From: Mytilus trossulus
Taxonomy: Eukaryota
NCBI RefSeq assembly: GCF_036588685.1
Contig: NC_086382.1
Span: forward strand, 52,576,001-52,640,000
DNA length: 64,000 nt
Direction of reading: 5' to 3'
The position numbers were made by a program, and so were the translations under genes. The first letter of the stretch is position 1. Each line of letters begins with the position of its first letter. This document shows, piece after piece, positions 10,275 to 59,819 of this stretch. The notes beneath the pieces were generated by a model. The model was given only the letters and a program-made list of their open reading frames with translations, was not told the DNA's origin and did no database searches.

Positions 10275-11520
10275 TTTTATCATTGCAATATAACTATATA
10301 AATCCACTGCGTATCATGTATTTACTTTTGTTTTATTTCAATTACTATAAACAAACTATTGACGGGATGTATAAGTACCCGGCAACGTCTAATTGTACTT
10401 TTGTCCATCTGATGAGTTAAGCCTATGACAACTGATTTTTATAGTGCATTCTTATGTTGTACTGTTATACCACTGTCCTATGTTAGGGGAGGGTTGGGAT
10501 CCCGCTAACATGTTTAACCCCGCCACATTATTTATGGATGTGCCTGTCAAAAGTCAGGAGCCTGTAATTCAGTGGTTGTCGTTTGTTTATGTGTGACATA
10601 TTTGTACTTCGTTCATTCTTTTATATGAATGGGACCGTTAGTTTTCTCGTTTGAATTGTTTTACATTGTCATATCAGGACCTTTTATAGCTGACTATGCG
10701 GTATGGGCTTTCCTCGTTGTTGAAGGCCGAGCGGTGGGTGAACTATAGTTGTCAATGTTTGTGTCATTTTGGTCTCCTGTGGTCAGTTGTCTCAATGGCA
10801 ATCATACCACATCTTCTTTTTTATATACCAAGAATACATCTAGAAAATACAATTCATTTTTTTGAAAATATCTCTGTAAAAGATTTCGATTGAGGCAAAT
10901 AAATATCTTATCGAATGTCTTAGAATCTCGCTACAATAGAAATATTTATTAATCTTCAACACCAAACGATAACGGATTACTTCAACCAATTTTGCAACAA
11001 CACCGACTTGCATGTGAAAAACAGAATTAATGAAATATCGAAAACAAAAACAGACCCTTTGGCATTAAAAACATGAGTGAAACGGGGTTTTTTTTGTAAA
11101 AGTTTGTGTCATTACTTACAAGTAAGCTGTGCGAGTTGTATAAATCCGGACGGATTCAAGACGTGAACAGTTTGTGTTATCTCTGAATGCATAGGTGACC
11201 TGGGTTGAGTTCAATATCGTATCAGCTACGTAGTGCTATGCATATTTTGACTATTGAGCGTGTAGCTATAGACTAGTTGTTACATATATATTGATAGCGA
11301 TATTGAACTCAACCCTGCTGGCGACACGTACGCACCTATCCCTACTTTTTTCTACTGGCAGTCAAATTTTCCCGAATCTATGCTGATTGACCAATAACAT
11401 GGCGAATTTGTAATTTGTTTTTGTCATGAATCTGCTTGAAAATTTGCAACAGGACGTTAAGCAAATCAGTAAATAACAAAACTACATAACCTACTGACAT
11501 GACTTTTTGTCTTCTTTGTT

Positions 11521-17841: not shown

Positions 17842-20800
17842 AGCTTTATCGTGGTGGTCAGTTTTTTTAATTAATGGAGAAGCTTTATCTTGGTGGTCAG
17901 CTTTTTTTTATTAATGGAAAAGCTTTATCGTGTTAGGCAGGTTTTTTTTATTAATGGAGAAGCTTTATCGTGGTGGTCAGGTTTTTTTATTAATGGAGAA
18001 GCTTTATCGTGGTGGTCACTTTTTTTTTTTTATTATTAATGGAGAAGCTTTATCGTGGTGGTCAGTTTTTTTATTAATGGAGAAGCTTTATCGTGGTGGT
18101 CAGTTTTTTTTTTATTATTAATGGAGAAGCTTTATCGTGGTGGTCACTTTTTTTTTTATTATTAATGGAAAAGCTTTATTGTGATGGTCAGTTTTTTTTA
18201 TTAATTGAGAAGCTTTATCGTGGTGGTCACTTTTTTTTATTAATGGAGAAGCTTTATCGTGATGGTCAGTTTTTTTTTATTAATGGAGAAGCTTTATCGT
18301 GGTGGTCAGTTTTTTTATTAATGGAGAAGCTTAATCGTGGTGGTCAGTTTTTTTCTTAATGGAGAAGCTTTATCGTGGTGGTCAGGTTTTTTTTTGTCTT
18401 AATGGAGAAGCTTTATCGTGGTGGTCCGTTCTTTTTTTTTAATTGAGAAGCTTTATCGTGGTGGTAATTTTTTTTTATTAATGGAGAAGCTTTATCGTGG
18501 TGGTCAGTTTTTTTTTTTATTAATGGAGAAGCTTTATCTTGGTGGTCAGCCTTTTTTATAAATGGAGAAGCTTTATCGTGGTGGTCAGTTTTTTTATTAA
18601 TGGAGAAGCTTAATCGTGGTGGTCAGTTTTTTTTTTATTAATGGAGAAGCTTTATCGTGGTGGTCAGTTTTTTTTATTAATGGAGAAGCTTTATCGTGGT
18701 GGTCACTTTTTTTTATTATTATTAATGGAGAAGCTTTATCGTGGTGGTCAGGTTTTTTTTTTAATAATGGAGAAGCTTTATCGTGGTGGTCAGTTTTTTT
18801 ATTCATGGAGAAGCTTTATCGTGGTGGTAAGGTTTTTTATTAATGTAGAAGCTTTATCGTGGTGGTCAGTTTTTTTTATTAATGGAGAAGCTTTATCGTG
18901 GTGGTCAGTTTTTTTATTAATGGAGAAGCTTTATCGTGGTGGTCAGTTTTTTTTATTAATGGAGAAGCTTTATCGTGGTGGTCAGTTTTTTTATTAATGG
19001 AGAAGCTTTATCGTGGTGGTCAGTTTTTTTATTAATGGAGAAGCTTTATCGTGGTGGTCAGGTTTTTTATTAATTGAGAAGCTTTATCGTGGTGGTCATT
19101 TTTTTTATTAATGGAGAAGCTTTATCGTGGTGGTCATTTTTTTATTAATGGAGAAGCTTTATCGTGGTGGTCAGTTTTTTTTATTAATGGAGAAGTTTAT
19201 CGTGGTGGTCAGTTTTTTTTATTAATGAAGAAGCTTTATCGTGGTGGTCAGTTTTTTTATTAATTGAGAAGCTTTATCGTGGTGGTCAGTTTTTTTATTA
19301 ATGGAGAAGCTTTATCGTGGTGGTCAGGTTTTTTATTAATGGGGAAGCTTTATCGTGGTGGTCAGTTTTTTTATTAATGGAGAAGCTTTATCGGGGTGGT
19401 CAGGTTTTTTATTAATGGAGAAGCTTTATCGTGGTGGTCAGTTTTTTTTTATTAATGTAGAAGCTTTATCGTGGTGGTCAGTTTTTTGTTATTAATGGAG
19501 AAGCTTTATCGTGGTGGTCAGTTTTTTTATTAATGGAGAAGCTTTATCGTGGTGGTAAGGTTTTTTATTAATGTAGAAGCTTTATCGTGGTGGTCAGGTT
19601 TTTTTATTAATGGAGAAGCTTTATCGTGGTGGTCAGTTTTTTTATTAATGGAGAAGCTTTATCGTGGTGGTCAGGTTTTTTTTATTAATGGAGAAGCTTT
19701 ATCGTGGTGGTCAGTTTTTTTATTAATGGAGAAGCTTTATCGTGGTGGTAAGGTTTTTTATTAATGTAGAAGCTTTATCGTGGTGGTCAGTTTTTTTTTA
19801 TTAATGGAGAAGCTTTATCGTGGTGGTCAGTTTTTTTTTATTAATAGAGAAGCTTTATCGTGGTGGTCAGTTTTTTTATTAATGGAGAAGCTTTATCGTG
19901 GTGGTCAGGTTTTTTATTAATGGGGAAGCTTTATCGTGGTGGTCAGTTTTTTTATTAATGGAGAAGCTTTATCGTGGTAGTCAGTTTTTTTTCTTATTAA
20001 TGGAGAAGCTTTACCGTGGTGGTCAGTTTTTTTTTATTAACGGAGAAGCTTTATCGTGATGGTCAGGTTTTTTATTAATGGAGAAGCTTTATTGTGGTGG
20101 TCAGGTTTTTTATTAATGGAGAAGCTTTATCTTGGTGGTCAGTTTTTTTTATTAATGGAGAAGCTTTATCGTGGTGGTCAGTTTTTTTAGTAATGGAGAA
20201 GCTTTATCGTGGTGGTCACTTTTTTATTAATGGAGAAGCTTAATCGTGGTGGTCAGTTTTTTTAGTAATGGAGAAGCTTTATCGTGGTGGTCACTTTTTT
20301 ATTAATGGAGAAGCTTTATCGTGGTGGTCAGTTTTTTATTAATGGAGAAGCTTAATCGTGGTGGTAAGTTTTTTTATTAATGGAAAAGCTTTATCGTGGT
20401 GGTCAGTTTTTTTATTAATGGAGAAGCTTTATCGTGGTGGTCAGTTTTTTTATTAATGGAGAAGCTTTATCGTGGTGGTCAGTTTTTTTATTAATGGAGA
20501 AGCTTTATCGTGGTGGTCAGTTTTTTTTATTAATGAAGAAGCTTTATCGTGGTGGTCAGTTTTTTTTTTATTAATGGAGAAGCTTTATCGTGGTGATCAG
20601 TTTTTTATTAATGGAGAAGCTTTATCGGGGTGGTCAGGTTTTTTTATTAATGGAGAAGCTTTATCGTGATGGTCAGTTTTTTTTATTAATGGAGAAGCTT
20701 TATCGTGGTGGTCAGTTTTTTTATTAATGGAGAAGCTTTATCGTGGTGGTCAGTTTTTTTTATTAATGGAGAAGCTTAACGTGGTGGTCAGGTTTTTTTT

Positions 20801-21276
20801 ATTAATGGAGAAGCTTTATCGTGGTGGTCAGATTTTTATTAATGGAGAAGCTTTATCGTGGTGGTCAGTTTTTTTATTAATGGAGAAGCTTTATCGTGGT
20901 GGTCAGGTTTTTTTATTAATGGAGAAGCTTTATTGTGGTGGTTAGTTTTTTTTCTTATTAATGGAGAAGCTTTATCGTGGTGGTCAGTTTTTTTATTGAT
21001 GGAGAAGCTTTATCGTGGTGGTCAGGTTTTTTATTAATGGAGAAGCTTTATCGTGGTGGTCAGTTTCTTATTAATGGAGAAGCTTTATCGTGGTGGTCAG
21101 TTTTTTTTATTAATGAAGAAGCTTTATCGTGGTGGTCAGGTTTTTTTATTAATGGAGAAGCTTTATTGTGGTGGTCAGTTTTTTTATTAATGGAGAAGCT
21201 TTATCGTGGTGGTCAGTTTTTTTATTAATGGAGAAGCTTTATTGTGGTGGTCATTTGTTTTTATTAATGGAGAAGC
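17842..21276 (+). repeat. Tandem satellite, ~36-42 bp unit (AGCTTTATCGTGGTGGTCAG-Tn-ATTAATGGAGA), roughly 90 copies
   Basis: Directly visible. Unit length varies through the poly-T tract, and most monomers carry a HindIII site (AAGCTT). Copy number is estimated as length/38. Confidence 0.97.
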
Positions 21277-25800: not shown

Positions 25801-28800
25801 TGCACAAAGAAACCTTGTGTTAATCAAGGCGTTTGTCTAGATGAAACTACAGGATACAAGTGTTACTGTCCAAATCCATATGGTGGTCTTAGATGTGAAA
25901 TTGGTACGTATCAAAATAACCTTAATAATAGGCCAAAAATCTCTCATTCTTTCAAATAAAAAAAAACACAATTAAATTTAATAAGAGACTCTCAACAAAC
26001 TGAATCGACAACCTGTTATTTACTATTGAAACAAAAGACACATTCATAAATTAGTGACAAATCATCATTAAAGGGCAATAGCTCCGTAATTATATCAAGT
26101 GGTGTCGGTCATATAGACAATTTTGAAGAGCTTCTATTGCTCCAACTTTTCATTTTACAGTTTCTATCTATAAAAGGGAGAAGGTTTGGTACCGTTTAAA
26201 CGTTTAATCCCGCTGCAAATGTTTGCACCTGTCATAAGTCAGGAATCTGATTTACAGTAGTTGTCGTTTGTTTATGTAATTTATACGTGTTTCTCGTTTT
26301 TTTATATAGATTAGACCGTTGGTTTTCCCGGTTGTTTTACACTAGTAATTTTGGGGCCTTTATAGCTTGTTGTTCGGTGTGAGCTAATGCTCCGTGCTGA
26401 AGGCCGTAAATTGACCTATAATGGTTTACTTTTTTAAATTGTTATTTGGATGGAGAGTTGTCTGATTGGCACTCACACCACATCTTTCAAAACAGTTTCC
26501 AAGATAATATTCCAAAGACATGAAAAATTTTCTATTCAAAACATGCCATTTATAGGCAATAACTCATATAAGGAGTGATCCGATCTAGGAAAGGAGGTAG
26601 GTCATGCATTCTGACCATTTTCGCCCTGTTATAATTTCTCCAAAAGGTTGGGTTTTTTTAATTAGACAATTTCAATTGATTTAGCCTTCTGGTTTATTTT
26701 AGTCATGGCACCCTTGTTTGTTTGATGGCAGGAACAAAAACTTATTTTAAATATCATAAAACTCATGCAGTTAAAATTAAGTTAAAATTGGCTAAGGTCA
26801 CGTTACAGTAAATAACTGTCACAGATTTTGATAAAGCTTTAGCTCGTGGAACTATAATTTAAAAACGAAAATAGAATACGTCTATCTCTTGTATTATCTT
26901 AAACATCAAAATAGCGTCATATCAACTGTAAAAAAGCACATAAAACCTACAAAACATGTTCCTAAATTTATGTAAAAATCATGAAATACATTACGATAGG
27001 ATCACCAATTTCGAGTTCGTGGTTACGCTATACATAATTAAAAGTGGTGTTCTGTGTGAAAAGTGTACCACAAAACATCGCAAAAAGTGTCACGCTACAT
27101 AAAAACGTCGTTGTGTGGTTTTTTTCACTACCAAATAGGTAACAGATTGGTTAAATGACCAAAAGGAAGTAGGAAATTATTATTCCTTGGCCTAAGTGGT
27201 TTCAGAAGAGATAAGTTTTTTTAAACGTTTACGACGACTACAGAGGACGGACGGACTTTAAGTAATTGCAATAGCTCAACAAGACCCAGATGAACTTTAA
27301 AGCAAACAATAGCTCGCAAAGAGCCATGAACTTAAAAACAAGGGAAAAAAAGCAAATCAGCAAATATAAGCTCTCAATTTTAAATAATAAATTTCAAATA
27401 TAGTCAATATAGCTTAATTAATATACAATTTATCATTTTAACAAATTGTCTCCATATAAGACTGTAGCAGTAACAATCTTATTGGACCATCAAATGCCAA
27501 AGCTATACCTGATGCCAGTTTAACAGGATATAATATGTACAGTTCAAATGTGGCGAAGGATGCAAGATGGAATGCAGGTGGATGGTACGGGGAGGATTCA
27601 ACATCTTATTTACAAGTAGATTTAGGTTGGTTAAATAAATATTAAGAAACAATTGCTATGCATTTTATGTTGGTACCACCACGAATCTAAAATTGACTCT
27701 TTATCATTTAAAGATACAATTTCTAGTCATTTATTGCGTATACTTTTTTCGCAAGGTACACTAGACAATTGTTCTATTGAGTAAAGCCATTTGACTTTTA
27801 GGCCATTTTGTGATCTATCATTACTTGCTATCTTTGTCATTTGAATGTGGTGGATCATTGCCAATGAGACAACTCTACTACCCAAGAGACCAAATGACAC
27901 AGAAATTAACAACTAAAGGTCAGAGTACAGATGACAACAACAGAACCACAGACTCCTGAATTGGGACATACGTTCGACTCTTGTGAAGAGTTGTCTCATT
28001 GGCAATACGCCACATCTTTGTTTTATACAAACATACATACACACATACAGAGTAGGCTGGGGTTATACATGTAAGTGGAATTCCAAACCACCTCTAACTT
28101 GGGACAGTAATAGCACTAGATAAGAACGACCTATAAAAATCAGGTGATGAAGGCTTAACTCATCAGATGAATACAAATAGAAAAAAAAAATCTTAAAAAA
28201 ACAGGGTTTACGCGGCCGGGTACTTGTACATCCCAACAACAGAAATAAATTAAGTACAGATCTGATGGTACTCACATTTACTGACAGAAGTTTCAAAACT
28301 AAACACAACTTATTTAAAAAGCATGTTTCTAAAATCTGAATCACAATATTGATAAAAGGTGCACTAGCTACGAGATATATAAATGATCTTTGAAATTCTA
28401 CTGTTAATGCCAAATTAGAGTTTTAATCCAATTTTCCACATGGCAAAAAAACTAAAGATCAGAGTACAGATGACAAGGACACATTCTTGTTTTTTTGTTC
28501 AATCATTAATGAAAGTGAAATAGCCAGTATGGTTTAATTTTGCCAAACTAAGCTAATAAATGTAGATGATGAATGATTCACTAGCACAATTATTATTTTT
28601 TCGCCTATATTGCATATGTTTGTTTTTGTGTGGAAATATACTGTTGATATAAGTATATATATATATTTAAATGAAGTTAGCGAAAATGTTTGTATTTCCT
28701 TATCTCACACCTTGTTCTGAAAACATCGACATTCATTTGATAAAAAAAAATAACTATACTTTAGTGCTGGGAGTACATACCAAAAAGAGTTCGGTGTTTT

Positions 28801-30658
28801 CCTGAATATCCCACTTTGTGAAATTACAGGTAAAAAATAATTTTGGGGGACAATTGGGAAGTTTGAATGTGGGACAATTGGAAAATGTAATGCCCCATTT
28901 ATGAGCATAATGTTTTCTGGTCTGTCCCGTCTAACGTTTGTTCGTCCGTCTGTCCCGTTTCAGGTTAAAGTTTTTGTTCGATGTAATTTTTGATGAAGTT
29001 GGAGTCCAATCAACTTGAAACTTGGTTCACATGTTCCCTATAATATGATCTTTCTAATTCTACTGCCAAATTTGAGATTTCCCCCCATTTTCACGATATA
29101 CTGAACATGAAAAAGGATAGTGCGGATGAGGCATCCGTGTACTGGGGACACAATCTTGTGTTGGTGGCGATTAATTTGTTTTATAGTGTGTTGTAGTTAT
29201 TTAAAGGTTACTAATCAATGTAACTTATCAAATATGGAGAAAAAAAACATGAACATATCTTATTTTGCACATAGTAGGTAAAACTGAAGTATCATCAAAC
29301 ATGGAAATTAATATGAAGTTATAACATTTTAGTCTTAGATAGATATTTGTTTTCATTTAGTTTTTATTGGCTTTGAACGAGCTGTTAGTAACTGCGGATA
29401 TACAGTAGACTATGACAACAAGTATATTTCAGAATTAATTTGTTTATGAGTTGCTACATTGTACATGTAAGAGGTCAAACACTTATGACCATGTGTACAT
29501 ATTTCAAATATAGATTTCAATTTGCTAATGCAATTCACCATAGGCAAAAATCAGAATACTCAGCTATCAACGGCTACTATTGTATCTTTATTTTAGAATA
29601 CAATAATTTTACTTTTAGGAAATGTATCTCATATAGACAATTTTCAAATCAAAGCTCGAAGTTCCAGCCCTTCAGCATATAATACTGGGAGTTTCTACAT
29701 ACAACATAGCATTGATGGAAACATATTCCATAATTACACATCAAGTTCCAACGGAAATGTATTTGTAAGTGATTAATTTAAGGTGTAAGGGTTTTTCATT
29801 CAGTAACACGAATACACGTTAAACGTATTCTTCCAGAGCACCTGATATCATCTCAAGTTTTTGGTGGGGTTCTCGATGCTCGGTCTATAGTTTTATATAT
29901 GTGTTTTGTATACTATTGTTTGTCTGGTTGTTTTGGTGTTTTTTAGAAATGGCGTTGTTATATTATTTTCGCCTTGTGAGTGTGAATGTCACTCTTGTAT
30001 CTTAAGCTTCTCTTCAAACTAAGAAGGCAGGCATCAGTCTCCCCTCGGCGTTATAAATGAGCAAAGGTCAAAACTACATGCATTTTCTTAGTAAGCTCAT
30101 AAAGTAGTGTAACAAATCCAGATTACTGGAAAAGAGAGTTTATATGATCGGCTGTTCTCATTAGGATCCTCATTTAGTCTATATCTGGATTTTATTTTTT
30201 GAGGCAAGAACGTTCTTATGAACGTCAATACGGAAAATCGTTTAACGAATTAACTTCAGAAACTGATATTTTCGTTTACATAGGTATCATGTTACGGATG
30301 TATTGTAATTAAACTGTGATTCGTAAATGATAAATATGCATAATGGTAATATAAATCTTGAATAGGAACAAAAGTAGATGTCAAAACTATAAAGCTTTAT
30401 GCAAATACTTTTTTATTGCATTTAGCTGATATGATCATAAAGTCATCCATACCATTCGTATTTTTTGTATAGAATTAGACAATTAATTCTGCATGTATTT
30501 TGCAGACTTTCTCTGGTACCACGTCTAGCAGTGCTCACAAAGTCAATCTACCCGAACCGTTAGATACCAGATTCATCAGATTCTTCACCCTGACGTGGCA
30601 TCACAGTTACAAACCGTACATGAATATGGAAATTCATGGCTGTCACAATAACTCATAA
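22885..30658 (+). CDS. Paralog 3: same architecture (365 aa, 9 exons)
   Basis: Exons 22885-22961, 23644-23710, 24251-24334, 24632-24733, 25388-25577, 25790-25903, 27461-27625, 29619-29764, 30506-30658; all GT-AG; 1098-nt open frame. MAAKMALVVLFGFSLVSIISS.., NNGDIKIGYNETGKVIFDNEDL, QPPVW..DPEGQPIVYGIVAGMLPPGVKL..TITIRATDIHG, EGF CTKKPCVNQGVC, F5/8C IPDASLTG..YLQVDLG..TRFIRF..MNMEIHGC. AATAAA at 30669-30674. Confidence 0.9.
28888..29160 (+). mobile_element. Probable Helentron-associated (DINE/HINE-like) non-autonomous element
   Basis: ATGCCCCATTTATG start, a GTCC/GTCT-type microsatellite near the 5' end, and a short hairpin followed by CACA.TCTTGT at the 3' end. The class assignment is by general structure only. 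Confidence 0.45.
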
Positions 30659-32038
30659 GAATATTTTTAATAAAATGCTACTGTCTGCTTTGTTAAGACT
30701 TCAAATACTTTTTAAACTACACAGTGTACTTACAAATAATAGCAATACCTTTCCAACTCTTTTTACATCTATTTTCGAATTGAACATTCTAGCGAAGAAA
30801 CACTATGGTTAAGGTTGGTCTCTTTTTTGTTATTTAAAAAGTGCATCCCAAATTGATAAAAATAGATATAGGTATACGGTAATGAATTGCAATAATTCAA
30901 ATCATCAATATATCCAACGACACAAATAACCAAAAGTTATCTAGAGATCAGCAAATATAACAAAAAAGATGTGGTATGATTGCCAATGAGACAACTGTCC
31001 ACAAGAGCAGTTCTTCAATAAAAGAAAAGTGTGTGTCTTTGACAAAAAAGGCAATGCACAGACAATTGAAAACATAACATTAATAAGATAGAAAACATAA
31101 TCCCATTTAAAAGCAAATACAAACATTGTTGAAATAGTGGATTTTGTTACTTGTACATATCATGTGAACATGTTTTATGAATAATTATAGGATACTGAGA
31201 GTTATCTTCATTCTAAAAAATCATCTACCTAAATTTGAAATTACTCAAACTGTTAGTACTTTCAGCACGTCAAATAGTAATGTTTAGGCTTGAAGATATC
31301 TACGAATAAAATATCATTTACATATAAATTTAAGTTTTTAGGTTGAAAATGCTGCAGTAGATATATTGACAAACCATTCACTCAAATCATTCTTGACAAG
31401 ATTTAACAACAATTAAAAATTATGAAAATCAAAATCCTGTCAGTATGATTATTCCTGTTATCTTAGTATGTGTCAAAAAAGTATTCTGCAAAATAGGGGT
31501 CTACTTTAAAAAAAACAACAACAAAAAAAACCCAAAAAAAACCAAACAAACAAACATGTAAGTCCTAAGAAAACAAAACATATACTGTATATGCAGACGA
31601 GCGGAATGACATAACTTAACAAAAAACATCTCATCTCCATCTTCTTGTCGCCCCTGCATACCTAGAACTGTCAGGTAAATCCCATGTTAATAGGCTGATG
31701 TATTTGATAGTCAAGAACTGAAATGAGGGAATTCTTTCAATGACGGATTGGTCGATGATAACACAGGTAATTTCTAAAGATCATGGGAATTTGATATATT
31801 TCAGAGGAAAACTGATAGGTTTCCTTATTTTCTGTCTACTCTTTTGGAATGTTTAATCTTATAAAAAGGTGTGGCCCCGTCCATTCACAGTTCTATTTCT
31901 CTACAATGAAAATGTGATACCAATCCATTTATTTGTTTAACACTGAAAATTAAAAAAAAACAGTAACTATTTTTTATTACACTTAACTCTATCTTCTTAT
32001 CAATTAGAGTTGTAGACCATGCAAGCACATCAGCAGTG

Positions 32039-32441
32039 TGGAGTACTATAAATTATAATCCTGGTACCTTTGATAACTATTTACAACACTGGGTCGATGC
32101 CACTGCTGGTGGAGGTGTCGTCCCCGAGGGTATCACCAGCCCAGTAGTCCACATTACGATGTTGACATAAATATCAATAATGTGGTAATTTTTATAAATT
32201 TCCTGTTTACAAAACATTGAGTTTTACGAAAAACTAAGGATTCTCTTATCCAGGGCATAGATTACCTTAGCCGTATTTGGCACAACTTTTTGGAATTTTG
32301 GATCCTCAATGCTCTTCAACTTTGTACTTATTTGGCTTTATAAATACTTTGGATATGAGCGTCACTAATGATTCTTATGTAGACGAAACGCGCGTCTGGC
32401 GTACTAAATTATAATCCTGGTACCTTTTATTACTATTTACA
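32039..32441 (+). mobile_element. Retrozyme monomer with ~40-bp terminal direct repeat; hammerhead core mutated
   Basis: Homologous to the 35655-36401 unit over its whole length. The hammerhead at 32359-32402 reads CTAATGA instead of CTGATGA and has a stem II G>T change. Confidence 0.85.
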
Positions 32442-33166
32442 AAGGCGACCACTTTTGTTTTTGTTTTTGTTTTGGTGGAGATGAGGGTATGAAGATTTAT
32501 AGTTATATTTGATTATTTTGCTTGATATTGTGAGGGGAATAAGAGGTGTAAATTAGTGATACAGCAACTTAAGAGCAAAATGAAATTAAAACGAAATCTT
32601 GGGCTTAGTACAAGATTTCCGAAGAGTCTTCTAAATTGACCCCAGTCTACAAAAGTTTGTACAAAATTTTTTTTAAATACAAAACTAGGTAATTAACACT
32701 AAACTTGTACAAATCTCGATTTATTTATAACGATATAAATAAAGAAAAAAGTAAAAACACAAAAATACCGAACTCCGAGGAAAATTCAAAAAGGAAAATC
32801 CAAAATCAAAAGTCCAAACATCAAACACATCAAACGAATGGATAACAACTGTCATATTCCTGACTTGGTACAGGCATTTTACAGAAAATACTGCAATCAT
32901 TATTAAGTTTACTTGGAAGTTACAGTGGTCTTCTTCTATACTGGATATACTTCAGATTGTCTATCAAAACCTTTTATTCCATATTCCGATATCTTATCAG
33001 AAAGTTGAATTAGTACTTATAGAACAGGTGAAAATTCATGAAGTAGTAAATAAACACAATATGGAGATAATAAGATTGAGATTGATAGAGATGGAAATAA
33101 TATAATTTGAAAATAAGAACGATAAATAATAAACGCATATACGAAGTGCACGCCATATTTACAGTA

Positions 33167-36100
33167 ATGGAAATAAGCATCAAGCTGGAACTTTTAGTAC
33201 TTATTGTTATGGATTGTATGTATCATTTGGCTTGCTTATCAGGGTGAGTACAAAAATTCACTCTTATTAAATTGAACTGCTTAGAACTGCTTTATTAACT
33301 TCTTAGTAAATATTATTGATATCCGCTGAAAGAGGGAAAATATATAAATGTATAAATGTATTTACTAAATGTCAAGTGGCAAATACATTTCAATTCCACG
33401 TTACATGCTTCTAGAAAAACTTATCTCCTTCGGATACAAAAGAGACCAAAAGCTAAAGATGCAAAACAACACATAAAACAACAAAAGGATGAAGGACCTA
33501 ACATGCCTAATGCCCTAACAGGCAAAATAGTTCTAGTAAAATTACATAAATTATCAACTGATGACGTATCAATTATATCATTACCGAAATAAAGAAGCTA
33601 TCAGTTGGATTGTATTCTAGGGGACGTACCGTTCACAATCAGTGGTATAGATTTAGTTATGAGGATATTAAACTCAACATTTGTATCATGTGGAACTGTG
33701 GGCTATGGCTCACTATTGTAACCCCCGCTTTGAAGTATTCGGTAGACATGACGTTGTAGAACAATGGCTGAGAAAACCCACCACAAGGTAAAGCATCCTC
33801 ATATAGATATTGAATATCATGGAAACATGTGATAGAAATATCTTGAAATGAACGAACATACAAATCGACAAGGGTAAAACAACATACCTCCTTTAAACGG
33901 TGCTGGGGTATATATACAAATTGGAGTAATTGGTTTGCGTTGCTGTGTTGCTTTGTAATGGAGAGCATGTATTTATTGTTTACATCCTAATCCTCTCCTT
34001 TGGTCTCTGATAGATAATTGTGTGATTTGCAGTCATGCCACATCTCCTTATTTTCCTACTTAGCCAGTTGTTCGATTCTATTAGTTGATTTATTGAAGTT
34101 TAAATACTTCACTTTTTCAGGCATGTTTGTACAAGAGAGCGAGCTGAGAATTATCTAACATCGTACAATCAGGCTTTCATATGCCAGGAGAGATATACAA
34201 CCAGCTGTGGGCATCTTGATTGGAGGAGGTGTACAAAATATCGGTATACATTATATCTTCAAATATGATTTTTAACCTCAGTTTTAGTCTATAACACGGA
34301 TTTGTTTTCTCTCATCCGATGTATGACTATCAAACAGTGTTATACTACTGTTTTTTTTATATTAAATGTAGATGCTTGTAAATTCACAAAAGGGTAGAAA
34401 AGTCAAGAAGAAAAAAACTATTCATTTGTTTTCTTAAAACAACAATTGTATTTTCCTAGATTATTTTTTATACAATGTCATTATGTGAACATTAAAAGTT
34501 CGCAAAACCAAACAAGACTCCCGTTTATAAGTGTTCGTTCGATCACACATAATAAATTATGCAGAGCTCCCGAAACTGTATTGGTGTATCAGGTTCATAC
34601 GTATGTGATATTGAAAAGCTATAAACAATTTTCCATTTCTTTTTATTATTGCGCTATTATATTAATATGCTAGAGGTACAAAAATTTAAACAGTGTACGA
34701 TACATGCTATTCGATAATTGGTACATATGATATACATGTAGGTTAAATGCAGTATCTTTATCGGGTATTACAGAAATGTTTCCAGAGCTACATATATAAT
34801 AGAAGAATACATTGCAAATGTTTTGGATAAACGTAAACATCAATTATTATATATAGAAATTTTAACCTTTCATTGCGACAATCTGTAAATGCTAGCACAA
34901 TAAATGAAAAATAATGTAAAATTTATAATTGACTTCAATGAATGTTAATGTGATTAGATCAAATGTACAGCATATGACAAGACTGGAAATAATGAAACTA
35001 ATAAAACCCTAAAAACTTTATTTTTCGTTACAGAATACAAACATGTTTCACTCCAAAACAAAAATACGCCATTCGTTATCATCAAATAGAAGCATGCTGT
35101 TCAGGGTGGAGGGAAGATGGGTCTGGAAAATGTACAGTACGTAAGTACAATGAAATGGGTGAACATTAGATATAAATATCTATGTAGATTTTAGTGACTT
35201 AAAATTGAATAACTAAGTTTCAGATTTTAGTCTAAAACTTGACGAATTAGAATAGGAATTTTAAGGAAGGGGTTCGTTCTAAATATTTGCTATGTCCAGA
35301 AGAAGCAAACTGACTAATAATATTTTTGAAACAACCAACAATTAATCATTATTTTTACAATGTTACTTAAAAAACAAATTTGAATTCATTAATTCATACG
35401 ATGTTTACTATGAAAAGTGTGTTTGGTGTTTAGTGTAAGTAAAATCCATCTATGATGTAAATGCACTATGCCTTGAACTGAACAAATGTTGTATGATTGC
35501 CGATGACATAACTCTACAAGAGACCAAATGACACAGATATAAATAACCATAGGTCACCATACTGTCTATAACGATGAGCAAAGCCCATGCCGCAAAGTCA
35601 TCTACAAATGGCTTCGAAATGGCAAATACGAAACATTTCAAACGAGAACAATTACGTATAAAATTATAATCCTGGTACTTTTGATAACTATTTACACCAC
35701 TGGGTCGATGCCACTGCTGGTGGACGTTTCGTCCCCGAGGGTTTCACCAGCCCAGTAGTCAGCATTTCGGTGTTGACATGAATATCAATTATATGGTTAT
35801 TTTTATAAATTTTCTGTTTACAAAACTTTGAATTTTTCGAAATACCAAGGATTTTCTTACCCCAGGAGTAGATTACCTTAGCCGTATTTGGCACAATTTT
35901 TTGTAATTTTGGATCCTCAATGCTCTTCAACTTTGTATTTATTTGGCTTTTAAACTATTTCGATCTGAGCGTCACTGATGAGTCTTATGTAGACGAAACG
36001 CGCGTCTGGCGTATAAAATTATAATCCTGGTACTTTTGATAACTATTTACACCACTGGGTCGATGCCACTGCTGGTGGACGTTTCGTCCCCGAGGGTATC

Positions 36101-38288
36101 ACCAGCCCAGTAGTCAGCATTTCGGTGTTGACATGAATATCAATTATATGGTTATTTTTATAAATTTTCTGTTTACAAAACTTTGAATTTTTCGAAATAC
36201 TAAGGATTTTCTTACCCCAGGAGTAGATTACCTTAGCCGTATTTGGCACAACTTTTTGGAATTTTGGATCCTCAATGCTCTTCAACTTTGTATTTATTTG
36301 GCTTTTAAACTATTTCGATCTGAGCGTCACTGATGAGTCTTATGTAGACGAAACGCGCGTCTGGCGTATAAAATTATAATCCTGGTACTTTTGATAACTA
36401 TATGGCTTAATTTATGTACAAATTAATGAAAGATAAACAACTAAATATCACAACAACAAACAAAGCTTCTGGCTTAGGACATGCGAATACAGAATGTGGA
36501 GGGGTTTAATATGTTGAAGTGTTTTTTCTATCGTCTCATGATTTACATTCTTTCTATTCCTTTTATTTAAGCTACTTGTTCACGAGAATGTCAGAATGGT
36601 GGATCATGTGTAGCTGTAGGTAACATGCCCGGATGTCTTTGTCAAGAAGGTTTTCATGGAGATACATGTCAGCATGGTACGTAGTAGTTTTTGCGCATCA
36701 CGATGCAAAGATATAGGTTTCATTATGTTTTCATGACAAATTTTGCTACTTAACAAAAGCTGTAATGATGGACGTCCTGATAATATGACTAAAATAACAG
36801 CTGGGCCTGTTGGATAGAATGACGAAAAAAATTGAATATTGGAAATAAGAATTTGAATGTATTAAAGCAACAGTAGATGCCGGGCATTCGAACCAACTAA
36901 GTGTTTACTTAAAAGTAATAAAACAGCTGAGCAGATAAAAGAAACATTATTTTATTGGAGTAATTATTAGCTGATATATCTTAACTTTTGTTTATCATTA
37001 TTGTCAATCTAGTTTGTCTAATTATTCTATACAAATCTAGCACAAAACGAATGGAAGTTGTGGCACACCGTGGCAGTATCGTCTGGGGCAGTGTTTCTCA
37101 TAATTGTTATTACCTTAGCTGTGGTTGTAACATACGGATGCAAGAGAACAGGGTGAGGGTTATTGATGAATATTTAAGGTCTAGTATTGTCAACCTGAGA
37201 AAAAAGAAATGATAGAAAATAATGTTTAAAAAAACCTGCGTTCTTAATTATCTTATTCGACACCAGCCTAAAAATCTGTCAAAATCACAGGTGCGACGTA
37301 TTTGCAACTTAAAATCAAAGTTGTTGTCATTGTTTAAAAAACTTCCTTAGTATAACCATTGAACAATTTGAAAATAAATTTGAAAGAATGGACTAAAACA
37401 CTTAAAACAGCATAATTGATAATTGTGATGGCGTTAACCTTATATATAAAGTTAAGACATTAAAACTGGGGGGCGTTATCGGGCAGTTCTATGAAAAGTC
37501 AAATGTATTAGTTATACATTTCCCGTATTCATAGGACATCTTGTTGAAACAAAATACACCCATGATAATAGTTAAAAAGCACATTATTTTTCTTTAATTT
37601 CGTATGAAGGTCCTAATTTGGGTACTTTGAGAAAATAATGTGTATCTATGTATAAAAAAAAAATCTAAATATCTACATTAAATAACTGATCTGCTGACAT
37701 ACCTTGGTGAGAGGTGAGGCAAAACAGTTCTATATTTACTTCCAAGTCTTATTTAGACCAAATAACATTTAATCACTTCACAATTAATAATTCAAAGCAT
37801 AAAAAGATACAAAGATGGATAAACTGCACAATGACTAAAGGAAATTAAATAATAACAGTTCGCGACATATGTTTCTACAGATAATTTTTTATTGCATAAC
37901 ACAAATCTCAAACCATGATGATGAACTTGATCATGTTCCCCGTAACGAAAAACAGCTCGTGTTTATGGTGATCATAATAAGCAGTTAAAAGATTATGATG
38001 GATAGTGTTATGCCATGAGCAATGAAAACATCTAAGACAAATGAAACATATGAAACAATATTGGAAGTTTTGTATAATTGACAATTGGTTCTTTTAATTT
38101 TCAGTGGATATCAAAGACTTCCTCAGAAGGAAATAATTTGTTTGAAAGCACCAAGTACAATAAGTACATACACTACGACTCAAACAAACACTGAGAACTA
38201 TGATCAACCCAATGACGACGTGTGTAATACCGTGTATCCTTCGGCGCCTCATATGACAAATGTACCAGATAGCATACAAAAATTATAA
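33167..38288 (+). CDS. Type I membrane protein: signal peptide + EMI domain + one EGF + TM + ~65 aa cytoplasmic tail (235 aa, 6 exons)
   Basis: Exons 33167-33243, 34121-34243, 35034-35140, 36572-36676, 37041-37152, 38105-38288; GT-AG, phases 2,2,1,1,2; 708-nt open frame. EMI pattern GHVC..Y..Y..YTTSC..WRRCTKYR..CCSGW..GKC; EGF CSRECQNGGSC..CLCQEGFHGDTC; TM VAVSSGAVFLIIVITLAVVVTYGC followed by KR. AATAAA at 38327-38332. Confidence 0.85.
35969..36012 (+). ncRNA. Minimal type I hammerhead ribozyme (intact)
   Basis: GCGUCA-CUGAUGA-GUCU(UAUGU)AGAC-GAAA-C(GCGC)G-UC^UGGCGU: full catalytic core, 6-bp stem I, 4-bp stem II, very short stem III with palindromic ACGCGCGU. Predicted cleavage after 36006. 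Confidence 0.9.
36324..36367 (+). ncRNA. Minimal type I hammerhead ribozyme (intact)
   Basis: Identical motif; predicted cleavage after 36361, 355 nt downstream of the first site. Confidence 0.9.
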
Positions 38289-40734: not shown

Positions 40735-41050
40735 AAAAAGTAAAAACACAAAAATACTGAACTCCGAGGAAATTTTAAAAAGGAAAGTCCAAAATCAAAA
40801 GGCAAAATCAAAAGTTTAAACACATCAACCGAATGGATAACAACTGTCATATTCCTAACTTGGTAGAGGCATTATCTAATGTATAAAATGGTGGATTGAA
40901 CCTGGGTTTATAGCTAGCTAAACCTCTCACTTGTATGACAGTCGCATCAATTTCCATTACATTGTCAACGATTCGTGAACAAAACAAACATACTCAAAGA
41001 GTAAAATGTCAAAAATAGGGGCACAGCAGTCAACATTGTGTTATCATCTT
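40735..41050 (+). repeat. Interspersed repeat family B (AAAAGTAAAA.CACAAAAATACTGAACTCCGAGGAAA...CTGTCATATTCCTGACTTGGTACAGGC)
   Basis: Other copies at ~1059-1220, 13959-14150, 32746-32880, 55448-55760, 42484-42572(-), 90-250(-) and 2790-2900(-). Confidence 0.85.
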
Positions 41051-41810: not shown

Positions 41811-42886
41811 ATACTAATATAGATTACTAAGCAGCACACACAATTACAACTACATTAATGAAAGTAGATTATTATACTTCTTAAATAAACAGGAAATTGA
41901 GGTATGATTGACAATAAGATCATTTTCGACCAGAGATCGAATGATACAGAAGTTAAAAACCATAGGTCACCAAAAACCTTCAACAATGATCAATCACATA
42001 GCAAGTTAAAACAGGGACTCGTCATAACAAAATGTGAAACAATTCAATGAGTTTTGAACATCGGTACACTATTGTTGCCTTTATCTATGGCCCTGTGCTG
42101 TCACTTTTCTGCTCTTCGGTCGAGTTGATGTTTTAACATAATATTTCCATTTGCCTTTATCAATTCTAATCATCAAAGTAAGCATGCAGGCTAATAAATT
42201 GGAACACCAGGTGCCCGCGTTGTCTTCATAAAAATTCATCAGATGCACTCGACTCCAAACAGGTAGAAAGCCATATCAAGTTAGAATTTGAACAACACAG
42301 AAAAACATGCAAATATTCCAATTGGTTGAACCAATTAGAATGCATATTAAATCCAACAAAGATTACATATGTCCATACTATATAAGATGTCCATACTATA
42401 TAAGATGTCCATACTATATTAGATTTTATATTCATGTAACTAGAAATACAAAACAAATCTTACCTAATAGCATGCTAACACAAGTCATTTGTATGCATTT
42501 AATCCATTCGTTTGATTCGTTTGAGCTTTTGATTTGCCATTTGATTATGGACTTTCCGTTTTGAATTTTCCTCTTTTACATTGTCTTATCGGGGCCTTTT
42601 ATAACTGACTATGCGGTATGGGCTTTGCTCATTGTTGAAGGCCATACGGTGACCTATAGTTGTTAATGTTTGTGTCATTTTGGTCTTTTGTGGATATTTG
42701 TCTCATTAACAATCTTACCACATCTTCTTTTTTAAATGTTCAAAGTGATAACAGTTTAGCACAAGTAATAAGTATGTATTAACAAAAGGAAAGGTTTTAT
42801 ACAAAGTGTCACGCTTTCTCGTTTTAAGAGATAATCTTATCTAACATTAGTATATGTAATCTTTAAATTATTGTTTAATATAAAAC

Positions 42887-43462
42887 AAAAAAGAAGATGT
42901 GGTATGATTGCCAATGAGACAACTATCCACAAAAGACCAAAATGACACAAACATTAACAACTATAGGTCACCGTACGGCCTTCAACAATGAACAAAGCCC
43001 ATACCGCATAGTCAGCTATAAAAGGCCCCGATAAGACAATGTAAAACAATTCAAACGAGAAAATTAACGGCCTTATTTATGTAAAAACAAATGAACGAAA
43101 AACAAATATGTAACACATAAATAAACGACAACCACTGAATTACAGGCTCCTGACTTGGGACAGGTACATACATACATAATGTGGCGGGGTTAAACATGTT
43201 ACCGGGATCCCAACCCATCCTCTAACCTGGGACAGTGGTATAACAGTACAACATAAGAACGAACTATAAAAATCAGTTGAAAAAGGCTTAACTCATCAGA
43301 TAGACAAAAAATACAAGTGGACGTGGCCGGGTATTTATACATCCCGACACAAAAAGACACAATGAACAGATCTGAGAGTATTCGCAGTATTCTGACAGCT
43401 AGTTCAAAGCCACTAACAACTAATAAAAAATCATGCCTCTAAGACTAAACACTCAATCCGTA
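42887..43462 (+). repeat. Abundant interspersed repeat family A (AAGAAGATGTGGTATGATTGCCAATGAGACAAC...), near full-length copy
   Basis: Homologous copies occur in the window at ~790-925(-), 8280-8440, 10361-10825(-), 12310-12620, 23375-23560, 26175-26490(-), 27850-28330, 35485-36520 (split) and 42575-42733(-). Confidence 0.85.
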
Positions 43463-50637: not shown

Positions 50638-52890
50638 TACTTGCTTACTTAATCCTCTTCGTGCTTCGATGCCGACACTAGATCCCTCCATAACACTCTG
50701 ACATGTGCTTTCTTTTCTACTTCTCGCCATGAAATTCCAACCTCTTTCATCTCGCTTTCCACTGTTCTTCTCCATATTTCTTTAGGTCTTCTCCTTTTCC
50801 TGTTGCCATTTGAAGTCCACCTTAGTGACACTTTAGCGATGTTTACTGGTTCCTTCCTTAAGACATCGCCTATCTATTTCCATCTTCTTGTTTTTATTTC
50901 ATCTCTTATGTCTCTTTGTGCTGTCAGTTTGAATAGTTACTGATTGGTTATTTATTTTGTTTGGCCAAAAGATTTTACATATTCTTTTCAAGCAGGTATT
51001 GTGGAATGGAGCCAGTTTGTTGAAGTCAGTTTGTACAATTCTCCAACATTCTGAGCCATAAAGCAGTACAGATTTGACATTGCTGTTGTAGATTTTAAGC
51101 TTTGTGATTCTGTCAAGGGATGATGATTTCCAGATTAGTCTGAGTTGACAGAAGGATGGTCTAGCTTTACTCAGTCTTGATTTGATGTCTTTGGTGGTCT
51201 CGTTATCACTGCTTATTACACCGTCTAGGTATATAAAGTCTTCTAGTTGTTCTATTTCCTCAATGTTTATGGATCCAATCTTTATTGGAATTTTATTGGA
51301 TTGGTCGTTGATTGACATGACTTTCGTTTTCTCGATGTTTATTTTGAGCCCAAGTTTCTTTGACATATCCTTCAGTCTTGAAGTTTTCTTGTGTACATAT
51401 TATCCCAGTGTTTCAATTTCCTAAGGTTGATCTCATATACCAGTCAACAACTATTATTAAAATTCCTTTGTCCCTATCAGCTGGTATTTCTCCATCTATC
51501 CATATGGTAAATAGATAATGTAGTATCTCGCTTGTTGACTGTATGTCTGACTCTAGTAATTCTGCACTGATGTTATCTATGCCTGGTGCTTTACCATTTT
51601 TTAGTTGTTTTATTGCCTTTTGGATTTCATCTTTGCATACAGCTTCTGTGCCTATTTCCAGTGGTGCATCTCCAAACGGTTGAATGTCGGATATATATCA
51701 TCGTTTGCATCAGCCCTATTAAGGATACTTTTGAAGTGTTCTGCCCAACGATCTAACTTTTCCTTGTTTGTAGTAAGAAGCTTCCCCTCTTTGAATAGTA
51801 CTGGTGCGTCATTATTCCCGGACTTTCCACAGAGCTGCCTAGTGATTTTGTATACTGCACTGAACTCTCCACGCTTTGACGCTTCTTCCGCTTCATTTGC
51901 AAGTTCTTCAACAAAGTTTCTCCTATGATTCTTTGCATCTTTTTTTACTTCTTTGTCTTTATCTCTATAGTATGATTGCAATTTGGTTTTCAATCTGTTA
52001 GATTTAGCTGCATTTGTTTTTATTTCTATGGCTGTCCTTTCTTTGATGTTTTCCAAGGTCTTTTCTGACGACCACTGTTTTCTTTTTCTGTTCTTTAAAC
52101 CCAATACTTTCTCAGCTGTTTTAGTATAAACGTCTTTGATGTTATCCCAAACTTCAGTTATGTTTTCACCCATGTTTTCATTGTTGTCATCAATTTCACG
52201 GAGTGCTTGGTATCTGTTTTTTTTTATTTCAGTAGTACATTTTTGTCTTATTTTGTTTTCCTTCAGTCTGCAGATCAAATGTTTTCCTGCTCTGCTCGTT
52301 CATCTTCGGAGCTTCAATTTTATTTTGCCAATAATCAGGTAGTGGTCACTTCCACAGTCTGTCCCTCTTTTTACAGATACATCGTTGAGTGAATGCCGCC
52401 ATCTGCCTTTTATCATTAGATGGTCAATTTAATTTTTGTCTCTCCTGTTTGGCAATGTCCAAGTAAGATTATGTATATCTTTGTGCTGGAACATTGTACC
52501 ACCAATTACCAGACCATTTAGTCCACAAAATTCAATCAGTAGGTTTTCATTTTCATTACAAGTTCCACATCCGTTGTTACCAATTATTATCTCCACTCCG
52601 TTGTTACCCATTATTATCTCCACTCCATTGTTGTCACTACCTACTTATGCATTCAAGTTTCCATTAACCAGTAAAACGTCATGGGCATGCACTCCTTCCA
52701 TTACACTTCTTAGCTTTTCATAGAAGTCGGTTTTAGTTTCAATGTCTGCTTCGTTAGTTGGTGCATAGCTTTGAATCAAAGTAAGTTTAACAGATTTTGA
52801 ATGGAATCTTGCTGTTATTATTCTCTCATCTGTAGGTTTCCATTCTCTTAGAGCTTTACTTGCTTGCTTATTCATTATGATGTAAAACAT
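50638..52890 (-). mobile_element. Decayed RTE-clade LINE (APE endonuclease + internally deleted RT), 5' truncated
   Basis: Fragmented ORFs carry LTLIQSYAPT, GNLNA, HKDIHNLTW (APE), RW.EHF..ILN, GLKINIEKTKVM, F.YL.G.I, SVLLYGSECW and WTSNGNRKRRRPK..W. The 3' end is a TAAGTAAGCAAG tandem tail typical of RTE. Stops and frameshifts are present. Confidence 0.9.
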
Positions 52891-59405: not shown

Positions 59406-59482
59406 CTTTGGTGTCTCTGTCAAATCTGGCAAACGTATGCATGGTGTCTCCGTCATATCTAACGTGCACGCATGTTCTATGA

Positions 59483-59526
59483 GCGTCACTGATGAGTCTT
59501 ATGTAGACGAAACGCGCGTCTGGCGT
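59483..59526 (+). ncRNA. Solo intact hammerhead ribozyme of the same retrozyme family (insert ~59479-59561)
   Basis: Same core and stems, followed by the family's AAATTATAATCCTGGTACCTTTGATAACTAT end. Confidence 0.85.
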
Positions 59527-59819
59527 ACTAAATTATAATCCTGGTACCTTTGATAACTATTCTAACGTATCACGACGAAATTAAAAGGAGCAACCGACGA
59601 TGGCAACACATCAAAGGAATACAAACCCGGAGTAACATATACATTTCGGCTATATTTTTTTCCGTTGAATACTACTATAGATAGTAGATGATATGATATA
59701 AATATTTTGTCGTCAAAATTGCTATTACATCTGTTTGGAAATTAAACTATATTCGCTATAAGATTTTACAACTCATGTCTTCAGCATAGTACTATGAATC
59801 TGTTCTTTTCCATTTGTAG

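Follow-up and report, generated by a model that had tools for sequence, protein, structure and literature searches.

The closest described relatives of the element reported here are the retrozymes of the mussel Mytilus galloprovincialis, tandem repeats of 350–390 bp which together carry about 5,000 hammerhead ribozymes (PMC7229834) and of which one 375-nt sequence has been printed (PMC4918200, Additional file 11). A genomic repeat of that mussel self-cleaved at ~0.1/min in a single-repeat assay, ligation reached ~30% with RtcB versus ~1% alone, the retrozyme RNA was abundant and dominated by circles, and Penelope-like elements (PLEs) were named as candidate helpers (PMC7229834). A 2026 preprint argues that animal retrozymes are non-autonomous PLE derivatives (bioRxiv 10.64898/2026.07.22.740005), and the enzyme and the template by which they spread are left open in those portions of the literature available to us. 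Two groups of PLEs are relevant here: Poseidon_Ac (PAc), an autonomous lizard element for which internal initiation in a stem-loop has been demonstrated in vitro (Frangieh et al. 2024, PMC11167929), and the Naiads, for which an N-terminal GIY-YIG domain, CxC and DKA are diagnostic (Craig et al. 2021, PMC8557442). The present analysis concerns 64,000 nt of Mytilus trossulus DNA (assembly GCF_036588685.1, NC_086382.1, positions 52,576,001–52,640,000, forward strand; hereafter the window, with position 1 as its first letter), in which the third intron of a gene for an EMI- and EGF-like protein contains a tandem retrozyme. We are fairly confident that this is a young, 5'-truncated, two-unit insertion of an abundant mussel non-LTR (long terminal repeat) retrozyme, which was likely copied from a circle by the reverse transcriptase (RT) of a Naiad and is likely nearly harmless to its host gene.

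The tandem-repeat analysis of the window identified a 355-nt unit, present head to tail 2.1 times at 35655–36401 (747 bp, 98% matches), with differences between unit 1 and unit 2 at 4 of 352 positions. Each unit ends with a complete type I hammerhead, comprising a 6-bp stem I, CUGAUGA, a 4-bp stem II and GAAA, with the CTGATGA cores at 35975 and 36330 and with cleavage predicted after the GUC sites, i.e. after 36006 and after 36361. Helix III has only 2 bp; its palindrome, ACGCGCGT, lies at 35998–36005 and 36353–36360, and the strand ACGCGCGU is self-complementary. The hammerheads were recognised by pattern and fold, and the Rfam scan of the window at gathering thresholds gave no match. The monomer 36007–36361, the unit that double cleavage would release, as the initial annotation of this DNA had proposed, has 38% GC, no LTR and no long open reading frame (ORF): its longest stop-free stretches, read on the circle, are 50 aa in sense and 88 aa in antisense. 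The same annotation had described a tandem dimer with perfect cores on the sense strand of intron 3 of an EMI-EGF gene, which is right according to the tandem analysis, the pattern search and the exon structure. The features of the insertion and its host gene are as follows.

35655–36401, + strand: whole retrozyme insertion, 2.1 units, 747 bp, without target-site duplication (tandem analysis; empty site in run X2)
35655–36006, + strand: unit 1, 5'-truncated, first base at +4 after the cut site, with 4 private differences (unit alignment)
36007–36361, + strand: unit 2, the cut-to-cut 355-nt monomer (unit alignment)
36362–36401, + strand: 40-nt 3' tail that reaches the fixed end of the family (+39 to +45), the putative start of reverse transcription (ends of family copies)
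35969–36012, + strand: type I hammerhead 1, core at 35975, predicted cut after 36006 (pattern and fold)
36324–36367, + strand: type I hammerhead 2, core at 36330, predicted cut after 36361 (pattern and fold)
35998–36005, + strand: helix III palindrome 1, predicted partner of palindrome 2 (fold)
36353–36360, + strand: helix III palindrome 2 (fold)
36054–36111, + strand: bulged hairpin (+48 to +105), common to the Naiad 5' start, with a second copy at 35699–35756 (comparison with Naiad; fold)
33167–38288, + strand: host gene, 235 aa, exons 33167–33243, 34121–34243, 35034–35140, 36572–36676, 37041–37152 and 38105–38288, with intron 3 at 35141–36571 (splice sites, open frame and RNA contigs)

The locus is an ordinary member of a known and very abundant mussel retrozyme family. 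The 1.30-Gb genome contains 10,441 exact matches to the 37-nt ribozyme (a control pattern: 0), the best 250 family matches reach 100% identity and many of them stand in tandem arrays of up to ~110 units, and contig C14 carries a copy with 100% identity to unit 2. Several attributes by which retrozymes are defined are present: one type I hammerhead per unit of a 150–450-bp tandem, a non-coding sequence with GC below 45–50%, and dispersed copies ranging from dimers to long multimers. The element shares with the M. galloprovincialis retrozyme the 350–390-bp tandem unit, GC below 45%, the lack of an ORF, the thousands of copies and a type I hammerhead with 2-bp helix III and tetraloop (PMC7229834, PMC4918200), and the printed 375-nt sequence is homologous to it along the unit, with 42 of 44 ribozyme letters alike (compared by eye, on text extracted from a figure). 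The assignment to a tandem non-LTR class already described in mussels was thus borne out by structure and homology, the unit of 355 nt representing a sister subfamily of the printed one. The tail of this subfamily followed by a non-unit base at +42 was found at 738 places, a few of which are internal variants, and two cut sites were crossed in 31 of 82 sampled insertions, so that insertions with multiple ribozymes likely number in the hundreds. The window itself holds six further family fragments, one of them with an identical core at 59489; two of these copies deserve to be listed.

32050–32441, + strand: older copy of the family (91%), a monomer with its tail, located 5' of the host start codon (family match)
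59480–59561, + strand: 5'-truncated family copy with intact hammerhead and 41-nt tail (family match, pattern)

The array of ~110 units lies near the start of contig C1 (G000:C1:269,000–308,500, L061–L064). About 1 kb beyond its 5' end there is an inverted pair of Penelope-type RT/GIY-YIG frames of 578 and 471 aa, which could drive transcription of the array; the Penelope-type ORF has no segment in common with the retrozyme unit. Elsewhere on the same contig (G000:C1:161,000–164,000, L081 and L082) older copies of the retrozyme and degenerate telomere-like TTAGGG repeats form an alternating series with a spacing of ~1,054 bp.

The host gene has six exons, five introns that are all of the GT..AG type and an intact open frame of 235 aa. 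The predicted protein consists of a signal peptide, an EGF domain (PF00008, E 8.5e-8), a transmembrane stretch and a tail; an EMI-like cysteine pattern was judged by eye, and Pfam gave no match to it on the split exons. RNA contigs of run X23 have the letters of exon 3 joined before 36572 and contain the GT..AG joint 36676>37041, which places the ribozymes on the transcribed strand. The RNA runs are contigs filed under other organism labels or as metagenomes, and as such cannot show circles, strand or level. Three simple patterns revealed no cryptic poly(A) or splice motifs in the insertion. The retrozyme splits an older dispersed repeat, whose halves were delimited by comparison with an uninterrupted copy at ~42897–43200.

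35486–35654, strand not assigned: left half of the older dispersed repeat split by the retrozyme
36402–36515, strand not assigned: right half of the split older repeat

In run X2 the site is empty: one contig (493 nt, depth 5.86) places its letters 344–493 on 35499–35648 and its letters 1–338 on 36402–36739, through exon 4, the two matches being taken as one record on account of equal length, depth and complementary coordinates. The contig has 5 letters where the window has 6, hence there is no target-site duplication at this locus. Contigs of runs X3 and X4 start at 36401–36404 with loose letters in front and run through the start of exon 4, which suggests that the site is probably empty there as well. 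The empty X2 site with no duplication indicates a young insertion, in agreement with the initial annotation; X2, X3 and X4 carry an organism label other than that of run X1 and differ by 2–5% in the flanks, so the insertion is polymorphic or lineage-limited. A contig of X1 over the left junction enters the insertion by only 27 nt (31 are needed), and X1 may be the assembled sample, hence it was not counted as support. Conservation at the orthologous site, which would be expected of a domesticated regulatory ribozyme like that of CPEB3, was not found (site empty in X2, probably also in X3 and X4).

The copies of the family carry a record of how they were made. Among 35 copies with at least 93% identity, chosen by a whole-unit or core match and not by their 3' end, 33 terminate at +39 to +45 past the cut site and the other two at +47 and +50; likewise, in 4 of 4 runs contigs break off at +42/+43 (79–161 contigs per place). 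The 5' ends were studied in a sample of 90 of the first 100 listed of the 738 tail matches, from contigs C1 and C2 only, of which 5 were removed for an anchor one base longer than the pattern and 3 as internal variants or rearranged, leaving 82 copies, and a further 5 ran beyond the fetched stretch, leaving 77 ends. These ends are scattered round the unit (that of the present copy is at +4), and no inverted 5' pieces were flagged among the sampled copies. Target duplications above chance were not detected: 5 nt are shared in 2 of 77 flank pairs and none share more, like in shuffled pairs. The long target-site duplication, optional in the definition of retrozymes and mentioned for M. galloprovincialis as occurring 'when present' (PMC7229834), was therefore found neither here nor in the 77 copies. 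Typically the copies are non-integer multimers sharing one 3' end, and the combination of a fixed 3' end, variable 5' truncation and partial tandems is what is expected of a Penelope-like non-autonomous element; Naiads show the same 5' truncation, partial tandems and lack of clear target duplication, with a tail of 30–40 bp (PMC8557442).

The first cut site is passed by more than 10 nt in 70 of the 82 copies, and only 7 junctions (~15 after correction) start exactly at +1 among ~4,255 genome-wide, a denominator taken from a pattern that counts nearly all junctions. The possibility that the 5' ends mark the end of a self-cleaved RNA was rejected, as the 7 raw ends at +1 do not significantly exceed the 3 at a control position (P 0.28). 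Read-through of the cut site together with the scarcity of +1 ends implies that the copied RNA was intact across the cut, i.e. a ligated circle or an uncut multimer, and not a linear monomer. Units are closer within a locus than between loci in all 38 of 38 loci (0.9% vs 2.4%), as one template read repeatedly would give. Across 66 loci the ribozyme, tail and hairpin vary ~4 times less than the rest of the unit (the figure for the tail is biased by the choice of loci), with 0.55% for the ribozyme against 2.1% for the unit body. A modest excess of 5' ends maps to the helix III palindrome, positions −9 to −1 (13 of 77 vs 2.3 expected, scan-corrected P 2e-4); 10 of these 13 are stubs of 42–50 nt, and on later passes the excess is not significant (3 vs 1.2 expected, P 0.12). 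Genome-wide, 18 ends lie at −3 against 3 at −13 (P 0.015, or 0.03 without the 2 already sampled). The GC-rich paired helix III may stall the enzyme.

Intact candidates for that enzyme exist in the same genome. With an RT fragment taken from a flank as query, many intact frames of 1056 aa in 4,277-bp tandems were retrieved; they exhibit an N-terminal GIY-YIG domain (E 5.7e-7), CxC and DKA and are thus Naiads. The Naiad 3' region gave 90 distinct matches in the sampled loci, and 69 of them terminate no more than six bases from a single point. Six bases beyond this end, already in the following tandem unit, starts a hairpin with homology to +48 to +105 of the retrozyme; the retrozyme itself ends 5–6 nt before the same hairpin. 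Two Naiad subfamilies carry the hairpin, equally far from the end, which makes it a cis signal shared with an intact autonomous partner. The hairpin segment scored 41 against Naiad, the maxima of 60 shuffles each being 22 and 25.5, while ribozyme and body segments against Naiad, as well as retrozyme segments against a canonical Penelope-type element, gave chance scores only. The fold has z ~ −2.4 to −2.6, and in an alignment of 7 sequences 95% of cells are paired, 4 of 12 pairs are changed on both sides and 0 of 500 shuffles reach the covariation score, whereas in slid controls the pairing drops to 24–49%. The hairpin is the only sequence that the two elements share, and in both it stands equally far from the fixed end. 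Naiads encode an endonuclease and RT and lack hammerheads, whereas the retrozyme contains no ORF. Neither the fixed 3' end nor the hairpin is described for M. galloprovincialis in the available part of PMC7229834, the Naiad–retrozyme link is not described in the available portions of the literature that treats both elements, and both features had escaped the initial annotation.

The possibility that the insertion is a pLTR (pseudo-LTR) of a coding, autonomous PLE was rejected: no adjacent RT/GIY-YIG ORF is present, the flanks being host intron and older repeat, and tblastn found no Naiad-like match in the window. Likewise, a 29-nt match to the retrozyme tail in one Naiad subfamily was considered as a shared end of the kind known from short and long interspersed elements (SINE/LINE) and rejected; it lies inside the Naiad 3' untranslated region (UTR), and neighbouring UTR repeats lack it, so it is a passenger stub. 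Such stubs of 27–29 nt in the Naiad 3' UTR (L191–L194, L201) occur at 304 exact places in G000, have spread as passengers and end exactly at the fixed end of the retrozyme. The same hairpin is also present in other repeat families with different upstream sequence (L047:5976–6408, L170:1400–1480, L116:2024–2108), and a young retrozyme array sits in opposite orientation inside a Naiad-like ORF (L044:3360–4033).

The combined data suggest the following course of events. The Naiad protein would bind the hairpin and nick AT-rich DNA, and copying would start 5–6 nt upstream of the hairpin, at +41/+42. In the case of the present copy the enzyme would have crossed the sealed cut site, circled twice and stopped at +4. 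Host transcription of this locus is expected to yield both ribozymes in sense; if they are slow, the intron would mostly be defined and spliced first, and cutting would mostly take place later, in the intron or lariat, where it could free the 355-nt monomer for closure by a host ligase. We lean towards a more general version, according to which retrozyme circles parasitise ribozyme-free Naiads by means of a copied start hairpin, with a start 41–42 nt past the sealed cut, rolling rounds and stalling in the helix III palindrome, and sense intronic dimers feed circles from spliced introns at little cost to the host. If true, it names the helper enzyme and the start signal of an animal retrozyme. 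Poseidon_Ac provides a parallel, as there too the genomic 3' end is determined by internal initiation on the RNA, at a stem-loop that lies downstream of a hammerhead (PMC11167929); that element was tested in vitro, whereas the start in the retrozyme is deduced from genomic ends alone. The vertebrate retrozymes (10.64898/2026.07.22.740005) belong to the same class, with the same proposed PLE dependence and many intronic copies, but they are tied to hammerhead-bearing pLTRs of Neptune and Poseidon, and the available part of the preprint proposes no Naiad helper or start signal.

Several points weigh against this scheme. Cleavage and circles at this copy are suggested by its sequence and by published data on the family, and contigs cannot show circles or RNA levels. 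The rate of 0.1/min was obtained by T7 transcription of a single genomic repeat, which may differ in sequence from the present one, and the dimer may be faster; of 9 predicted Xenopus dimers, 8 showed no cleavage in vitro (10.64898/2026.07.22.740005). The covariation set consists of 7 related sequences aligned on the structure of one of them, and the three changed pairs of the outer helix represent one Naiad-versus-retrozyme event each. The comparison covers two Naiad subfamilies and one canonical element, and other Penelope-like families may carry the hairpin. Within-array similarity could equally result from local amplification or homogenisation, the read-through data are explained by a linear uncut multimer no worse than by a circle, and Poseidon_Ac mainly used uncut RNA as template (PMC11167929).

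The last two points lead to the alternative that survives best, though we consider it unlikely: the template would be uncut linear read-through RNA of a genomic array, the ribozyme would be of minor importance for mobility, and the copy would be a plain non-autonomous Penelope-like tandem. Arrays of up to ~110 units do exist, and transposition of PAc in vitro did not depend on ribozyme cleavage (PMC11167929). Moreover, the two units differ at 4 sites, with all variants in unit 1, a difference that would not arise from a single circle at insertion; two of these variants, however, are absent from the other 231 units and the remaining two occur in 1 and in 4 of them, a pattern that fits later mutation. 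The similarity of units within each of the 38 loci, the dominance of circles in mussel retrozyme RNA (PMC7229834) and the ~4-fold stronger conservation of the ribozyme relative to the unit body also speak for the circle.

The initial annotation had gone on to suggest that the two motifs need each other, that they would cut the pre-mRNA in competition with splicing and that the insertion could act as an expression-modifying allele. In its strong form, i.e. fast cutting as a double hammerhead with reduced expression of the host gene, this explanation seems improbable. Sense orientation, intact cores and the existence of an empty allele are in its favour. The isolated motifs are indeed predicted to co-fold as a double hammerhead (the best fold, −31.5 vs 2 x −10 kcal/mol), as the initial annotation had anticipated, and the predicted probability of the active fold of the monomer is 2e-4. 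Folding therefore favours the dimer, yet the published mussel single repeat cleaves at ~0.1/min (PMC7229834), and dependence on the dimer is reported for amphibian motifs, of the obligate-dimer newt/axolotl type. The predicted pairing probability of the palindromes is 0.89 in an 850-nt folding window but 0.23 in the whole-intron fold, in which stem I pairing is below 0.01. In the local pre-mRNA the active folds are not predicted to be the most stable ones, since complete active folds, single or double, lie 5.6–9.1 kcal/mol above the minimum; the predictions ignore tertiary contacts, proteins and the order of synthesis.

The kinetics likewise argue against a large effect. The predicted cuts are 565 and 210 nt upstream of the 3' splice site, and the double form cannot arise until 36367 is transcribed. 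With elongation at 1–4 kb/min (the upper value from PMC10919898, the lower assumed), the computed fraction cut before the 3' splice site is made is 0.5–5.5% at the published 0.1/min and 4–36% at 0.8/min; if splicing is slow, 5 min at 0.1/min would give 39%. The intronic CPEB3 ribozyme, also a self-cleaving RNA in sense within an intron, has a half-life of 2–3 min and does modulate its mRNA (PMC10919898), but it is single-copy and conserved, and its half-life is matched to a 9.9-kb run to the next exon, whereas the present copy is mobile, polymorphic and 210–565 nt from the splice site. According to the summary of Fong 2009 in PMC10919898, splicing was unaffected by slow intronic ribozymes. In Xenopus retrozymes are under-represented per base in introns, which counts in favour of an effect, but 42–44% of them overlap introns (10.64898/2026.07.22.740005). 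Thus, a large effect on the host gene is unlikely on these models and a small one is possible. The proposed assay of the 36361>36007 junction could not identify the locus, because the same junction letters occur in thousands of genomic tandems and unit 2 has a 100% identical counterpart elsewhere.

Finally, a satellite-type local duplication or a misassembled monomer is hardly credible as the origin of the dimer: tandem repeats are prone to misassembly and no contig spans the whole insertion, but the units differ at 4 sites, the ends fit the retrotransposition pattern of the family and non-integer multimers with the same 3' end prevail in it.

The locus itself is a minor case, one of many similar young insertions, and its value lies in two naturally occurring alleles, which differ by a ribozyme dimer in a single intron and with which the cost of slow intronic hammerheads may be tested. 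The result for the family carries more weight, as its copies record their own copying in the fixed start, in reading through the cut site and in the hairpin that intact Naiads also possess, and the presence of this hairpin at the same distance from the fixed end makes the question of the helper testable with one protein and one RNA circle.

Other features of the window are of a more descriptive nature. The older dispersed repeat split by the retrozyme is very abundant (in the window at 35486–35654, 36402–36515, 42581–43200, 10507–10812 and 27848–27922, with an inverted pair at 42581–43200) and has one fixed end, most matches starting at most 14 nt from one point; it revealed no consistent link to the ends of Naiad ORFs. 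Pieces on the − strand at 32760–32880 and 40740–41000 resemble Naiad 3' ends (by eye, against L186), and frames of 166 and 215 aa on the − strand at 50902–52299 resemble fragments of a LINE-type RT. A 38-nt unit forms an 88-copy tandem array with a strong strand skew (GC skew ~0.5) at 17842–21276, and at ~27470–30660 on the + strand the exons of the upstream gene resemble, by eye, a discoidin (F5/8 type C) domain.

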